From IMG/VR virus record IMGVR_UViG_3300020172_000530, positions 1-64,000 of that record: a stretch of DNA of 64,000 nucleotides; one strand, written 5' to 3'. The DNA is from a virus. Numbering within the stretch: the first letter of the stretch is position 1; each line of letters starts with the position of its first letter. Shown here in pieces: positions 1 through 4,855 of the stretch. A program made the position numbers and the translations under genes. The notes under the pieces are model-generated. The model was given only the letters and a program-made list of their open reading frames with translations. It did not search any database and was not told the origin of the DNA.

Positions 1-783
1 AAAATACCCTACATTACTAAACACCATATATGCTAAAGCATGTTGAGTAACTACTTTCATGAAATCTTGCTCCATTAATGTAGCAAACGACGCTCTTAAC
101 ACTGGTGATAGTAACGGTAACTTTTGATTGACCATAACCATTGCTTCGGATATCTTAGTTAATAGCTTTCCTCCAGCAATTACTCCTACGCCTGCCATAG
201 GTGATACCGTAGCAACTCCTAGTCCTGCAAATTGAACACCTTTACCCATCCATCCAATAAACTTTCCGATGAATCCCGAAGTTGTTATTATGCCAATTGT
301 AGCTTTGCCTAGTAGTGCCTGTCTATCGTTTTCTGCCCGTATAAGTGCTTCTTCATAAGGCATACCAGCAAACCTATTCGGCGGTTCTGCTGTGAAATTG
401 TTCTTCTTATATTCTTCCCAGTCTACTTCAACTAGCCCTACTGAATTAAAATAATCATTAACATAGTAAGCAACACCGCCAATACTGACTAAAGCGTTAG
501 CCGCACTAGGAATATTTGCTATCCTTTTTTCAGCATACTTTCTAGCAGCAACATCTTTAGCAGCCTTAGTTGCAGCAGCATCAGCTTTGTTCTTTTTAAG
601 AGTATCTCTGTAGTTTTTGCCTGCTTTTGATTTAGGACCTAGACCTTTGTTCGCAGAATTAGGCTTAATCAAGGATTTTCCTTTCTTAAGTGCCCATCTA
701 GCAGCATCGCCTCTCAAACCTTCATTGAAAGATTGCTCTTCATAAGGATAATATTTTTCAGCAATGATATCATAAACTTTCAT
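1..783 (-). CDS. Hypothetical late (probably virion-associated) protein, 3' end outside the window; missing from the ORF track
   Basis: Hand translation from ATG at 783 gives 261 open codons to the window edge (MKVYDIIAEKYYPYEEQSFNEGLRGDAARWALKKG...FSNVGYF); Lys/Ala-rich N-half, Gly-rich hydrophobic C-half; TAAATA 6 nt upstream. Confidence 0.85.
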   Translation of the reverse strand, partial: MKVYDIIAEKYYPYEEQSFNEGLRGDAARWALKKGKSLIKPNSANKGLGPKSKAGKNYRDTLKKNKADAAATKAAKDVAARKYAEKRIANIPSAANALVSIGGVAYYVNDYFNSVGLVEVDWEEYKKNNFTAEPPNRFAGMPYEEALIRAENDRQALLGKATIGIITTSGFIGKFIGWMGKGVQFAGLGVATVSPMAGVGVIAGGKLLTKISEAMVMVNQKLPLLSPVLRASFATLMEQDFMKVVTQHALAYMVFSNVGYF

Positions 784-789
784 AATTCA

Positions 790-795
790 TATTTA
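790..795 (-). promoter_or_regulatory. Late promoter -10 element (TAAATA)
   Basis: Minus strand taaTAAATAtgaattATG; same core as the T4 late promoter TATAAATA and other late genes here. Confidence 0.65.
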
Positions 796-797
796 TT

Positions 798-819
798 AAA
801 AGATGAACTGAGTTCATCT
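798..819 (-). terminator. Perfect 9-1-9 inverted repeat; possible terminator of the minus-strand operon or an operator
   Basis: AGATGAACT-G-AGTTCATCT at 801-819; on the minus strand the stem runs into a short U tract. Confidence 0.45.
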
Positions 820-859
820 GCTCTTCGCTTGAGCTCGAGCTTTTCTTTATATTAATTAT

Positions 860-1239
860 AATTAGTGCGAAGCACTTAAGATATTATCTAGATTGTTCAG
901 TCACATTTTGCCCAGAGCGGGCAAAGAGTAGGACATTATCTGAGTTGAACATTGTCACTTAGCGTTACAGCATTGCAGAGGCGGTCGTCCGGTACCTCGA
1001 GCTGCGTCTTTATACGACGGCGGTATGTAAATTTACGCTAACAAACGTACATACGTAGGGTATTTCTCCCTTCCTTAGCCTTTTTTATTCTTGTTCAGAC
1101 AGCAAAATGAGTTGTATGAAGGCATATCTCATCGTCATCCTTTCGGGTAGTTGCTGAATACTCTTTAACGGCGAAGAGACTTCCATCCCTGCGATCTGAG
1201 ATCCAGGTATAGGGCGCACGAACTTGGCTTGCGCTGGCC
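860..1239 (-). ncRNA. Candidate large structured non-coding RNA of unknown family
   Basis: ORF-free, about 47% GC by hand count (901-1240), about 10 stems, G-U wobbles and a GAAA tetraloop favour the minus strand, and a loop-to-downstream pseudoknot (1036-1041 with 959-964). Confidence 0.65.
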
Positions 1240-1680
1240 TTAACCGTTTAACTGTTTGCCTTTGATGTGAGATCCGTGGACACGAACACTGATCTGACCA
1301 TTATAATAATCGTCTGATTCTAGTACTCGCCTTGTGAATTGCTCTCTTGCCTCTATGTAACTACACTCTGCTTTTGATTTGCAGTAGTAGAGTATCTCTC
1401 TGTGGAAGTTGTCTGTGCCTAATTGTGCTACGTCTTTGGTGAGTTCGTCGGATGATCCGTAGTATTCTTGCCAGTCTGAGTCTATTTTTGACTTGATGCG
1501 TTTCTTTTTCTTTGTACCGTTCTTAAGTTTAACTACTTTGTAGGTTGTTTTTGAGAATTTTGCTAGTTTTTTGCCTATATACATGCGCCCTGTGTCTGTG
1601 TTAGTGATAAGATATACAAATCCTATACAGTCTTCGGGCAATTGTTCGACGAGTTGATTTTGATAATACCACGACATCAA
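1240..1680 (-). CDS. Stand-alone GIY-YIG family endonuclease
   Basis: GFVYLITN...MYIGKK, YYGSS, REIL...E and YYN motifs; no C-terminal DNA-binding domain. Confidence 0.85.
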   Translation of the reverse strand: MMSWYYQNQLVEQLPEDCIGFVYLITNTDTGRMYIGKKLAKFSKTTYKVVKLKNGTKKKKRIKSKIDSDWQEYYGSSDELTKDVAQLGTDNFHREILYYCKSKAECSYIEAREQFTRRVLESDDYYNGQISVRVHGSHIKGKQLNG

Positions 1681-1685
1681 GTTGT

Positions 1686-1925
1686 TTATGCCTTGTCATC
1701 GTCCTTGGCCTTTAAAAGTGATTCTCTATATTTTGGTGATTTAATTGGTGGTTTTTTGTGCCTGACTTCTTGTATCTCTGCTCTACGCTCACGTGCTATA
1801 ATACGTATTTCCGCTAGTAAATTGCGACATTTTATGCCAGCAACGTGAGTTTGTCTACTTTCCCACTCTTGATTGTATTTAAAATACTCTCTAAATAGGG
1901 TCATTAGCTGTTCGTGTGTGTCCAT
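1686..1925 (-). CDS. Small basic helical protein, possibly Hc1/histone-H1-like nucleic-acid-binding
   Basis: AGIKCRNLLAEIRIIARERRAEIQ resembles the Hc1 N-terminal AGxRxRxxLxE pattern; overlaps the gp46 stop. Confidence 0.55.
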   Translation of the reverse strand: MDTHEQLMTLFREYFKYNQEWESRQTHVAGIKCRNLLAEIRIIARERRAEIQEVRHKKPPIKSPKYRESLLKAKDDDKA

Positions 1926-3703
1926 TATACTATAATATCTAAGTCTGTACTATAGCTAGTAAAGCCGTTCTCTTTAATAACCTTGAGAACATTGTTTACT
2001 CGCCCAATAAGCTCGTCTTTATGACTGATCAAATAGATATTCTTGTTGCGTTCACGAGCCATTTTCTTTAAAACACTCAGGGCATTCTCCACTCCACTGG
2101 CATCAAGCCCGTTGTCTATAAGTTCATCTACAAATAACAAGTTAATATTCTGGTATAAGCTCTCCCATACATCTCTAAAGGACCAGCTCAGGCCAAGGAT
2201 CAGTCTGTTACGTTCGCCACGACTTAAATTATCAAAGTCTAAGTCTTGACCTAGTTGTGTTATTTCTACATTTAGGTCATTTAGGAATGTAACTTGATGC
2301 GGTAATCCCATCTTATCAAGATAGTAAGTTAGTCTACTATTCAAGTAGCTAAGATTCTGATCAATAATTTTCTTTCTAATAAAACTATCTTTATTGGTTA
2401 ACAATTTTAGAAGAAATTCTTGATGATCTTTTAAACTAGACAGTTCATTTACAAGATTCCAGTTAAGTTCTTGTAGTGCTGTGTTCTGTAATTCTTCAAT
2501 TTGTTCTGTATAAGGATCAATCTCTTGCTGTCGTTTACCTAACGCATCTTCTAGACTGTTTAAATTATTTTGGTGACGTAGTGCTTCACCTAATGTATCA
2601 TAAAAAGTTTGAGGACGCCCATTTATGTCTCCGATTGAATCCAATTCTTGTATGACTATAGCGTAACTGTCGCTTATTCCTTGTAAGAATACATACGCAT
2701 CGTCTAAGTTTTTTTGCGCAACAGTGATCATCTCTTGATGTTTATCTGTATGAAGACCTTGTTCACAAGCTGGACATTTATTATCAGCCAGTTTTTCTAA
2801 TTCTTTTTTATATTTGTTTACAGTTTTATCCGCTTGCATCACAGATGTTTCTAGAGTTGCTTTTTGTTTGTTTAGTGCTTTTATTTTCTCACTTAGCTCA
2901 TTATAAGTTTTTAATTTGGCATGTTGCTCTAATTCTTTTTCTATATCAACTGACTGCAATTCTATTATTTTTTCAGCTAGTTTCAAACAGTCTGCTTCTC
3001 GCTGATTATACCAAGCACCTTTTTTAATTGCTAATCCGTCAATACTTTGTTGTATCTTTTCGTTAGATTTCTTGGCTGCTTCTATATTAGCTGTCTCTTG
3101 TTGTATTTGATCTCTGCTGATCTTAACTTGTTCTTTTAATCCTTCTGCTTTTTCACTTAATAAAGTAATACCCAACAATTGTTCAATAATTTCTCGTTGG
3201 TCATTTGCTCTCATACTAAGAAACGGCTCTGTATAAGTGTTAAGAGCTACAATGTGTTTAAACATGTCATGGCTCATACCTAGTATGTCTGCTAGATCTT
3301 TTTGCGTTTCTCTAACATCACCTTGACTATCGTCTACTTCTGAGTTTTCTTGCTCTATGTCATTGACATAAAATTTTAAGATATTAGGCTTACGTCCTCT
3401 TTCTATACGATAATTTACACTGTCTTTTTCAAAAGCCAGTGTAACAAGCATGTTCTTGTTATTAATTTTATTAATTAAGTTATCTTTTTTAATATTTGTA
3501 AGTGCTTGTCCAAATAATCCGTAACTTAATGCGTTAACTATGGTAGTTTTACCTGTACCATTGCGCGAACCGCTGTCATCGCCGCCCATGTCTAGGTTTT
3601 CCCCTAGTACCAGAGTTAGTTGTTCCCGCTCAAAATCTACTGCTTGAGTCTGATTGCCCACACTCAGAAAATTCTTTACTGTTAATGTTTTTAATCTAAT
3701 CAT
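1925..3703 (-). CDS. gp46: Recombination endonuclease ATPase subunit (T4 gp46 / Rad50 / SbcC-like)
   Basis: Walker A NGTGKTT, coiled coils, zinc hook CPAC, signature LSRGE, Walker B LLFVDE, H-loop ISH. Confidence 0.95.
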   Translation of the reverse strand: MIRLKTLTVKNFLSVGNQTQAVDFEREQLTLVLGENLDMGGDDSGSRNGTGKTTIVNALSYGLFGQALTNIKKDNLINKINNKNMLVTLAFEKDSVNYRIERGRKPNILKFYVNDIEQENSEVDDSQGDVRETQKDLADILGMSHDMFKHIVALNTYTEPFLSMRANDQREIIEQLLGITLLSEKAEGLKEQVKISRDQIQQETANIEAAKKSNEKIQQSIDGLAIKKGAWYNQREADCLKLAEKIIELQSVDIEKELEQHAKLKTYNELSEKIKALNKQKATLETSVMQADKTVNKYKKELEKLADNKCPACEQGLHTDKHQEMITVAQKNLDDAYVFLQGISDSYAIVIQELDSIGDINGRPQTFYDTLGEALRHQNNLNSLEDALGKRQQEIDPYTEQIEELQNTALQELNWNLVNELSSLKDHQEFLLKLLTNKDSFIRKKIIDQNLSYLNSRLTYYLDKMGLPHQVTFLNDLNVEITQLGQDLDFDNLSRGERNRLILGLSWSFRDVWESLYQNINLLFVDELIDNGLDASGVENALSVLKKMARERNKNIYLISHKDELIGRVNNVLKVIKENGFTSYSTDLDIIV

Positions 3704-4710
3704 AAGTTATTGTATATTGAAAGTAAAACTTTTTTATCGTAAGTATCGCTGTCTATATTGACTAGCTGATTAGTTACAATTTGGTCTACACTTTCAAAGT
3801 CTTGTATTTCTAAAGTGCTAATCATCTCTATTTCTTTTTTTTCTGGAATTAGAGTTAGTTCTCTAATAGGATAATCGCCCATGAATTTTTCTTTGATAAA
3901 ATTAGCTTCTTCGTAGCTAATGTCAATGTCTAAGCTTACACGCAGATGTGTTTTAGGCAAGATAATATCACCAGCGCGGTCAATTAACTCGCTTAATTTT
4001 GTGGTTCTGTAAGTAGGTTGTCCAGGCCATGTATGATATGTAGGTTGCCCGCCCCATTCCATAATCATCATACCTCGATCTCCATCCCAATTGTCCGAAT
4101 AATTATGTGGGAAACAATTACCAATATATACCATGTTTCCTTTTTTCTGACGTTTATGAAAATGTCCGCTGAACCCTAGTTCATAATTGACAAAGTGATT
4201 TAATTGTATCTCTCCATGATCGGGCATCTGTACCATAGCGTTCATATAAAAGCTAGGTAATTCAAAATGACCAAACACATATCTTCCGCTTTGTTTAGCT
4301 ATAGTTTTCCATTCATCACCAATAAGCCATGGACATAGTGTGACGTCGTCTATAGTTGTAGGATGATGGATTACTGTAACACCTGGAATGTATTTTCCAA
4401 ACTCCACTGAGTGAATATCTCGTTTATCTTTATAGTACAGATCATGATTGCCAGGAAAAAAGAAAAACTGATCAAAGCTACTACCAAGTTTCTCCAATGC
4501 CCGGAGACTGAAATCCATAGTAGTAATATTAAGACTATTGCGATTGTGATGCCAATCGCCGAGAAAAATTCCAGTATCACAGCCTTCCTCCTTAGCTTTA
4601 GCAATATACCAATCTACAAAGTCTTCACAATCTTGATTATGTGTGTTGCTATTTGATTTTAATCCAAAATGTATGTCTGTTAAACATGCGACTTTTTTAA
4701 ATAGACCCAT
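3700..4710 (-). CDS. gp47: Recombination endonuclease nuclease subunit (T4 gp47 / Mre11 / SbcD-like)
   Basis: Phosphoesterase motifs TDIHFG, LGDWHH, GNHD, GHFE, SGHFH; start moved from 4740 to ATG 4710, which follows an AAGGA SD. Confidence 0.95.
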   Translation of the reverse strand: MGLFKKVACLTDIHFGLKSNSNTHNQDCEDFVDWYIAKAKEEGCDTGIFLGDWHHNRNSLNITTMDFSLRALEKLGSSFDQFFFFPGNHDLYYKDKRDIHSVEFGKYIPGVTVIHHPTTIDDVTLCPWLIGDEWKTIAKQSGRYVFGHFELPSFYMNAMVQMPDHGEIQLNHFVNYELGFSGHFHKRQKKGNMVYIGNCFPHNYSDNWDGDRGMMIMEWGGQPTYHTWPGQPTYRTTKLSELIDRAGDIILPKTHLRVSLDIDISYEEANFIKEKFMGDYPIRELTLIPEKKEIEMISTLEIQDFESVDQIVTNQLVNIDSDTYDKKVLLSIYNNL

Positions 4711-4855
4711 AAAATCCTTGTCCAATAATTTTTTGTACATCTTTCATCATGTCGTCATCCATCTGACAAATCCAAGATTCGTCATCAACCATTCTTGTAA
4801 ACAATAATTTTACTAGATACCCTTCGGGCAATCGCAATGTGATATATTTGCTCAT
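4697..4855 (-). CDS. 52-aa hypothetical protein (not in ORF track)
   Basis: MSKYITLRLPEGYLVKLLFTRMVDDESWICQMDDDMMKDVQKIIGQGFYGSI; ATGA overlap with the sigma gene stop, and its end overlaps the gp47 start. Confidence 0.7.
   Translation of the reverse strand: MSKYITLRLPEGYLVKLLFTRMVDDESWICQMDDDMMKDVQKIIGQGFYGSI

Follow-up and report, generated by a model that had tools for sequence, protein, structure and literature searches.

What does a large structured RNA do when it begins directly at the stop codon of a small nuclease gene, and does it depend on the nuclease for this? The question is raised by a stretch of viral DNA (the window), which comprises the first 64 kb of the 76.7-kb IMG/VR virus record IMGVR_UViG_3300020172_000530, rated 22% complete. 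In the window, a gene for a GIY-YIG nuclease of 146 amino acids (aa; 1240-1680, TTG start, stop codon 1240-1242) is followed by 456 nucleotides (nt) without a credible open reading frame (ORF; 784-1239) and then by a gene of at least 261 aa that starts at 783 (start codon 781-783). These genes and all RNA elements described below are encoded on the minus strand. The initial annotation had recognised a nuclease gene and an adjoining structured RNA, and both are real (Pfam family PF19835, E 3.1e-34, and Rfam family RF01718, E 1.8e-23). The region from about 795 to 1239 is one large, modular, structured non-coding RNA, and we consider it probable that this RNA is autonomous and acts in trans, that it is made as the tail of the nuclease transcript, and that the nuclease is not its obligate partner.

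The conserved structured RNA lies directly 3' of the nuclease stop codon and comprises about 445 nt (about 795-1239). In a comparison of 79 distinct related loci, the stop codon and roughly the next 370 nt are highly conserved (about 877-1242), and a second conserved block reaches about 795, about 445 nt past the stop codon. The limits given by the initial annotation (860-1235) were nearly exact for the main body, but the conserved block goes on to about 795. Its placing of the first stem 5 nt past the stop codon was exact, with the stop codon at 1240-1242, the RF01718 match starting at 1239, and the stem at 1234. The single-sequence fold of 784-1245 is unremarkable (z -1.71), and the support for the RNA structure comes from covariation and not from single-sequence folding energy. 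A 44-aa ORF within the RNA (1085-1219) has no Pfam match and was treated as spurious. Neither tRNA nor tmRNA was found in the window, and an Rfam scan of positions 1-3000 returned no family other than RF01718 at E <= 1. These scans rule out a group I intron, a tRNA, a tmRNA, or another known RNA family as the identity of the element.

The 5' domain of the RNA (domain 1, 1097-1239, 143 nt) was identified with cmscan as a copy of the Polynucleobacter-1 motif (RF01718). It matches model positions 1-141, and thus the whole model, with 106.8 bits compared to a gathering score of 37 (E 1.8e-23), and the match was obtained again on scanning the whole record. The stems covary as in the family. They comprise P1 (1230-1234/1214-1218), in which all five pairs are compensated, P2 (1189-1206), P3 (1161-1178), and an outer stem (1152-1160/1096-1104). 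In 74 aligned sequences, 97.1% of the cells of these stems are paired, compared to 23-39% with a slid partner, and 19 of the 29 pairs have changed on both sides. Domain 1 is therefore a genuine RF01718 member by its score as well as by its compensated stems. In addition, the three bases after the stop codon (1237-1239) pair with the P1 loop (1226-1228) to form a 3-bp pseudoknot, which is absent from the Rfam structure line. It is paired in 91.4% of the cells and shows the pair exchanges GC 33/GU 17/AU 12 and GC 55/AU 12. The text on Polynucleobacter-1 in the report of 2010 (Weinberg et al., PMC2864571) describes a likely cis-regulatory motif with 16 sequences from Burkholderiales and fresh water, and a full-text search of the literature found the name only in this paper. 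The RNA described here differs from that picture in three ways. Polynucleobacter-1 is only the 5' domain of an RNA of about 445 nt, most of the copies found are in contigs of T4-like phages behind a nuclease gene and not ahead of a regulated gene, and sister clades swap domain 1 for another domain while the 3' modules are kept. As a separate observation, a motif (A)AGCAGTT or AAACGGTT, followed by AAGGC, is found 5' of domain 1 whatever ORF precedes it (window 1237-1260; 12 loci). In the window, this motif extends over the end of the nuclease coding sequence, including the stop codon, and it might belong to the RNA or mark a site of processing.

Domain 1 is followed by a doubly pseudoknotted core (domain or module 2, 959-1054), whose helices were picked by unbiased mutual information (MI) from 76 diverse aligned copies (alignment A2) with no prior model. 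Helix H1 (1043-1054/1023-1034) carries a loop (1035-1041) that pairs with a strand about 75 nt downstream (959-965) to form the first pseudoknot, PK1, which is 97.3% paired with seven of seven pairs compensated. The second, PK2 (1014-1018/984-988, 98.4% paired), is a 5-bp helix that reaches into the loop of H4 (995-998/978-981), and the remaining helix of the core is H3 (1001-1005/967-971). Further downstream, a hairpin (CTTTGCCC...GGGCAAA, 906-926) is 96.9% paired in the 76 sequences (alignment pair 171/187: UA 51/AU 10/CG 6). A short terminator-like hairpin at 865-875 has a TTCG loop, an A/T-rich run behind it, and three covarying pairs (A2 pairs 232/243, 233/242, and 234/241). A terminator scan flags 864-876, with a weak tail (AATTATAATT) and no clean U tract. 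The derived structure contains seven helices, two of them pseudoknots, and has 91.9% of its cells paired compared to 37-47% when the partner is slid. In 34 of its 44 pairs both sides have changed, and none of 500 shuffles was as good as the observed structure. Many pairs are G-U pairs on the sense strand (UA 42/UG 20, AU 31/GU 26, and CG 50/UG 25 in the alignment of modules 2 and 3; UA 40/UG 25 in domain 1). These would be A-C mismatches on the other strand, so that the element acts as RNA, in the orientation of the nuclease gene. An nhmmer profile of module 2 found the module in 245 of 286 loci, and the loci without it are mostly cut short but also include seven loci of cultured phages.

Module 3 (791-840) consists of two hairpins, with a conservation profile of 0.57-0.74. 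The first (820-840) carries the motif GAGC..AGCGAA. The second (801-819), which was recognised by sequence reading and folding, has 8 bp (AGATGAAC/GTTCATCT) and is trailed by TTTAATAAAT with no clean U tract. The transcript probably ends here, 8 nt (784-791) ahead of the start codon of the next gene. Of 139 distinct phage loci, 112 have a GAGC..AGCGA motif in the 200 nt that follow the downstream member of the two boxes described next, and 16 of 27 loci from bacterial genomes have it behind the box. No Rfam family matches modules 2 and 3, neither in the window nor in six loci with an alternative 5' domain.

Two segments of 12-14 nt on either side of the hairpin 906-926 are what we call the twin boxes: box 1 upstream (CAACTCAGATAATG, 934-947) and box 2 downstream (CAATCTAGATAATA, 882-895). 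Four positions in each box vary, and their state is the same in box 1 and box 2 in 136 of 136 distinct loci, distributed over 11 states. The MI between the same index of the two boxes is about 1.0 bit, and the variable positions switch independently of one another. Common descent alone is not sufficient to explain concerted variation in all 136 loci together with independently switching positions. The pattern points to one partner that would read both boxes and whose specificity would differ between lineages. Extra copies of the boxes, searched as 7-mers, are not enriched in the flanks of 2.5-3 kb on either side (0.45 per locus compared to 0.47 in controls), and the extended motif TC.AGATAAT is not repeated elsewhere in the window beyond one plus-strand site and two other minus-strand sites.

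How closely is this RNA bound to the nuclease? A pattern scan of viral contigs gave at least 120 RNA loci. The nuclease gene is located upstream on the same strand in 115 of the 120 RNA loci listed, and immediately upstream in 108, while three of the five remaining RNAs lie within 90 nt of a contig end. Starting from the nuclease, domain 1 lies directly behind the gene in 64 of 80 loci, and in ten its place is taken by another 5' domain of equal conservation, with the same module 2 after it. The others comprise one locus that is cut off, three with another ORF first, and two without the RNA in the 2.5 kb examined. Selection on either the RNA or the nuclease is avoided by anchoring the comparison on gp46. 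In the window, the nuclease gene is preceded by an ORF of 79 aa (1686-1925), the SbcC/gp46-like gene (1925-3703), and the SbcD/gp47-like gene (3700-4740). Among 79 gp46-anchored loci, five are too short, and 73 of the 74 usable ones encode the nuclease within 3 kb. Behind these 73 nucleases there are 53 copies of domain 1, ten alternative 5' domains, nine loci that are cut off, and one other sequence. Identities among the gp46-anchored relatives are 53-89% for the nuclease, compared to 56-86% for gp46. Given its presence in 73 of 74 loci and its gp46-like divergence, the nuclease is a stable gene of the lineage and not a sporadic homing gene.

In the gp46-anchored relatives, the RNA behind the nuclease begins with one of at least two 5' domains. 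Domain 1 is replaced in sister clades (L154:2927-3320, L269:3186-3563, L233:4206-4599, and L230:6948-7310) by a second domain, which carries the motifs GGTCGAGG..CTCGAC and GGCAATTGCTAAC, or GGCTCTGTGAAAAAGATACAACC, while the pseudoknotted core and the twin boxes behind it stay the same. It had no Rfam match in the six loci scanned. Behind the nuclease stop codon of one more locus (L287:5436-5604) lies a third type of sequence, 168 nt long up to the end of the contig, which finishes with GGGTTCGAACC, similar in appearance to a tRNA T-arm. The flanking genes on both sides vary between loci through insertions. In seven loci an unrelated ORF, belonging to four clusters, stands between the nuclease and the RNA, and the RNA begins just after that ORF. 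Inserted ORFs of 228-334 aa were noted at L016:1652-2425, L036:1576-2427, L063:1766-2452, L070:1648-2448, and L075:1435-2439, and the junction between nuclease and RNA seems to be a hot spot of gene insertion. Whatever ORF precedes it, the RNA starts 0-30 nt after its stop codon on the same strand, and no shared promoter-like motif was present ahead of the phage RNA in 12 loci inspected. This makes co-transcription with the preceding gene probable.

Nevertheless, both occur apart. One viral locus (L053) contains the whole RNA and no nuclease. Conversely, a related phage genome rated 100% complete (G001), whose nuclease is 80% identical and is not adjacent to gp46, has no domain 1 and no module 2 detectable by BLAST. 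The closest cultured carrier of the nuclease, Methylophilales phage Melnitz-3 (48.9% identity), has neither domain 1 nor module 2, and no RNA was found within 2 kb on either side of six further nuclease loci of cultured phages, which include cyanophage records. None of the seven cultured-phage loci with a nuclease homologue has an RF01718 match, and a blastn search with 1090-1245 did not match any of 50,697 phage records, so that no cultured phage carrying the RNA was found there. In Synechococcus phage S-CAM22 (L205:3462-3560), a wcaG RNA (RF01761, 47.8 bits) and a tRNA-Arg are encoded slightly downstream of the nuclease homologue. Association of the RNA with this GIY-YIG clade had been suggested as a check of a joint function. 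It is faithful within the lineage, yet the RNA stands alone in L053 and in 24 bacterial loci, and the nuclease alone in G001, Melnitz-3, and the six phage loci. Independent occurrence, which the initial annotation had named as an outcome that would speak against its ribonucleoprotein, is seen in both directions.

The bacterial loci come from a set of genomes with one representative per species, which gave 90 pattern matches. Of these, 80 were examined and 27 are genuine according to the covariance model. Three of the 27 are phage-like and contain both the nuclease and module 2, while the other 24 do not encode the nuclease. The latter (L339, L341, L367, L366, L326, L328, and 18 more, with the RNA at about 3940-4100 of the oriented locus) belong to Limnohabitans, Polynucleobacter, Comamonadaceae, and other metagenome-assembled genomes, mostly Burkholderiales by record title. 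In 23 of these 24 loci a divergent DUF6641 gene lies upstream, about 190 nt from the RNA, with its Pfam assignment checked for one representative. Ahead of the bacterial RNA there is a promoter-like TAAATAA motif. Tyrosine integrases are often found close to it, as is a small proline- and lysine-rich ORF, and the genes downstream vary by locus. Considering the integrases and this ORF, the bacterial RNA appears to be part of an integrative element. Read by eye, it has the same order of downstream motifs, with twin boxes of the form GAACTC and GAATCT plus eight nucleotides around a hairpin. A search for a DUF6641 homologue in the phage record found none, but the control genomes did not give a match either, and a full-text search of the literature found no mention of DUF6641. 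In Polynucleobacter rarus (L339), the ORF directly behind the RNA, which starts about 550 nt past the start of the RNA, opens with GIY...YIG-like letters (GIYILVG ... LYIGEG), and its first 150 residues have no Pfam match.

The nuclease itself is an ordinary member of its family. The protein belongs to PF19835 (SegE_GIY-YIG; 118.3 bits compared to a cut-off of 25, E 3.1e-34, aa 4-130) and thus to the GIY-YIG superfamily. The Pfam scan revealed no other domain and no DNA-binding domain, which agrees with the minimal 146-aa nuclease without a specificity domain that the initial annotation had described. The AlphaFold2 model based on 72 relatives (mean predicted local distance difference test score, pLDDT, 95.8) is a single domain. 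A very basic insert (KFSKTTYKVVKLKNGTKKKKRIKSK), which had been singled out as a possible link to the RNA, is indeed present. In the model it folds into a long beta-hairpin with strands at 41-51 and 57-67. This insert is shared by the whole family, relatives without the RNA included. An all-against-all structure search gave only GIY-YIG enzymes at the top (Z 8.5 to 5.5): the catalytic domain of I-TevI (1ln0, Z 8.5, root mean square deviation 2.7 over 82 residues), PD-T4-3 (9u75, Z 7.4), T4 EndoII (2wsh, Z 5.6 over 83 residues), and the UvrC N-domain (1ycz, Z 5.5). Foldseek alone found I-TevI at a probability of 0.97-0.98 but with E 0.12, and no solved chain is related by sequence at E <= 1. 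In the alignment of the 72 relatives, Y23, Y34, E110, and N127 never vary, and at least 90% of the sequences share R94. We take these residues to be catalytic by analogy with I-TevI and not by superposition.

At E <= 0.001 the family has 2162 representatives, and relatives of the nuclease are encoded in at least 597 stretches. Most of the best 150 of the 2162 representatives have 130-165 aa, so a domain-only build is normal for this family. T4 endonuclease II (DenA) is a small single-domain GIY-YIG nuclease that degrades host DNA, and denA is located near ribonucleotide reductase genes in T4. The nuclease resembles DenA in size, in its single-domain build, and structurally (2wsh at Z 5.6), and its homologues are found near ribonucleotide reductase genes in cyanophage records. 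It differs in that the Z-score is lower than that of I-TevI and in that there is no sequence-level match to any solved chain. The PHROG assignment is phrog_447 (E 1.6e-38), which is labelled 'NAD synthetase', and homologues bear this label in many GenBank records, among them those of phages of Synechococcus, Sinorhizobium, Cellulophaga, and Stenotrophomonas. It looks like a propagated error, since fold and motifs are those of a nuclease.

How can these observations be combined? The RNA and the nuclease occur independently, the covariation used as a proxy for their interaction is negative, and the features of the nuclease are those of its family. We therefore read the RNA as autonomous and the nuclease as a conventional protein-only enzyme. 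Most likely, the RNA is transcribed as the 3' tail of the nuclease transcript, or of the transcript of whichever gene precedes it. It would then act on its own, in trans, through the twin boxes. The folded domains may serve as a scaffold, and the boxes as twin recognition sites for a single sequence-specific partner. This partner could be a nucleic acid or two copies of a protein, and its specificity would change between lineages. The initial annotation had offered three readings: the RNA gives specificity or regulation, the nuclease nicks a neighbouring element, or the two are neighbours only. The last of these has held up, with a faithful arrangement on the same strand, the RNA at the stop codon, and probably one transcript. 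The ribonucleoprotein has not.

Several points weigh against an autonomous, trans-acting RNA. The partner of the boxes was not found: the variable positions have no Watson-Crick partner within the RNA, no residue of the nuclease tracks the box state (maximal MI 0.28), nor does any nucleotide in the nuclease gene or in the 80 nt ahead of it (maximal MI 0.30, compared to about 1.0 between the boxes), and the flanks of 2.5-3 kb show no enrichment of sequences complementary to the boxes (0.36 per locus compared to 0.31 in controls). Among 17 matched bacterial loci, only 11 have two identical twin 8-mers, and in four others the 8-mers differ by a single position. Phage and bacterial module 2 did not match each other in nhmmer searches at E <= 0.01, so they are connected by motif order only. 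Away from its nuclease locus, G001 was screened for the RNA with the domain-1 model and by BLAST with module 2 of the window, and these searches could have overlooked a different 5' domain or a module 2 that has diverged. Co-transcription and the ends of the RNA are what we infer from sequence. Very faithful adjacency within the lineage is also what a functional pair would look like, and a nuclease without a DNA-binding domain of its own must either obtain its specificity from elsewhere or be non-specific.

Alternatively, the RNA could be a cis-acting 3' untranslated region, a structured tail controlling the stability, processing, or translation of the nuclease mRNA, for example by keeping a potentially toxic nuclease low or by timing its expression. 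In favour of this, the RNA shares its strand with the nuclease gene and begins right at the stop codon, the nuclease gene is immediately upstream in 108 of the 120 listed RNA loci with another ORF intervening in seven more, and the terminal hairpins would protect the 3' end. However, the same RNA trails unrelated ORFs in those seven loci, and it stands alone in L053 and in the 24 bacterial loci, there with its own promoter-like motif. It is also hard to see why end protection should need about 445 nt with two pseudoknots, which is far more than such a role requires, and no position of the nuclease gene or of the 80 nt upstream covaries with the boxes (0.30 compared to about 1.0). A purely cis-acting tail is thus unlikely, although it deserves consideration.

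The ribonucleoprotein would require that the nuclease binds the RNA and that the boxes or another part of the RNA provide specificity or switch the enzyme on, as in IscB and TnpB with their omega RNAs. The layout is indeed reminiscent of the IscB/HEARO omega RNA and the TnpB reRNA, where a compact nuclease gene also lies beside a large structured RNA, and HEARO, too, reportedly first came to light as an orphan RNA motif next to a nuclease ORF. The similarity is confined to this layout. In addition to the tight adjacency and the lack of a DNA-binding domain, the boxes behave as exchangeable specificity determinants, and the basic beta-hairpin seen in the model could bind nucleic acid. However, co-occurrence is not obligate here: RNA and nuclease each occur without the other. 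The single-domain build and the basic hairpin are family-wide and include relatives without the RNA, no nuclease residue tracks the box state (maximal MI 0.28), and complementary box copies are not enriched nearby (0.36 compared to 0.31 per locus). The fold is GIY-YIG rather than RuvC/HNH, no transposon ends are present, and no match between a guide and a target was found in the flanks of 2.5-3 kb. One full-text search did not retrieve a description of an RNA-guided GIY-YIG enzyme among the texts it covered. We regard a ribonucleoprotein of this kind as very doubtful.

The Pfam family is named after T4 SegE, the catalytic domain is that of the T4 Seg endonucleases and I-TevI, and I-TevI is the nearest solved fold. 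Together with the flanking genes that vary on both sides, this could suggest a mobile homing cassette, in which the nuclease would be a Seg-type free-standing homing endonuclease and the RNA its cargo or conserved target, moved by gene conversion. Two defining features of such an enzyme, sporadic presence and a separate DNA-binding domain, are missing. The nuclease is near-universal, being present in 73 of 74 gp46-anchored relatives. It has no C-terminal DNA-binding domain, and its divergence covers about the same range as that of gp46 (53-89% compared to 56-86%). The variation between loci consists of insertions of other genes and not of presence or absence of the nuclease. A homing cassette is accordingly highly improbable.

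A more far-reaching idea, to which we attach very little weight, is that the boxes are programmable specificity elements. The RNA scaffold would present two exchangeable copies of 8-12 nt to a nucleic-acid target and would be used by mobile elements together with an adjoining effector, which would be the GIY-YIG nuclease in the T4-like phages and the DUF6641 protein or the tyrosine integrase in the Burkholderiales islands. If true, this would add a new class to the RNA-directed systems, the first to involve a GIY-YIG enzyme.

Finally, a DNA-level element, in which boxes and hairpins would be protein-binding sites (iteron-like, an origin, or a packaging signal) and the RNA fold secondary, finds some support in direct repeats that change in parallel, as is typical of iterons read by one DNA-binding protein, and in the origin-like element that the initial annotation had placed nearby, but many helix G-U pairs are possible only on the minus-strand transcript, two compensated pseudoknots have no role in duplex DNA, and domain 1 is a curated RNA family, so that we can give this explanation almost no credit, even if the boxes alone could still be read as DNA.

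Large RNAs such as OLE, GOLLD, ROOL, and raiA are abundant in uncultured and phage sequence. With several hundred nucleotides, many covarying helices, and pseudoknots, the RNA described here is similar in kind. However, none of them matches modules 2 and 3, and to our knowledge concerted twin boxes are not a feature of these RNAs.

What is new about this RNA is its true size and fold with two or three pseudoknots not described before, its main habitat and position, the exchangeable 5' domain, and the twin boxes. Polynucleobacter-1, an orphan motif since 2010, is one domain of a doubly pseudoknotted RNA of about 445 nt, which is mainly at home in a large group of uncultured T4-like phages of fresh water (at least 120 viral contigs). 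The hosts of these phages are probably freshwater Burkholderiales. The same RNA architecture is found in integrase-bearing regions of Burkholderiales genomes. Two labels are corrected, the 'NAD synthetase' of the phage records and the homing-endonuclease name of the Pfam family, given that the nuclease behaves as a stable gene of the lineage. The twin boxes provide an experimental handle, which makes the function of this long-unexplained RNA testable.

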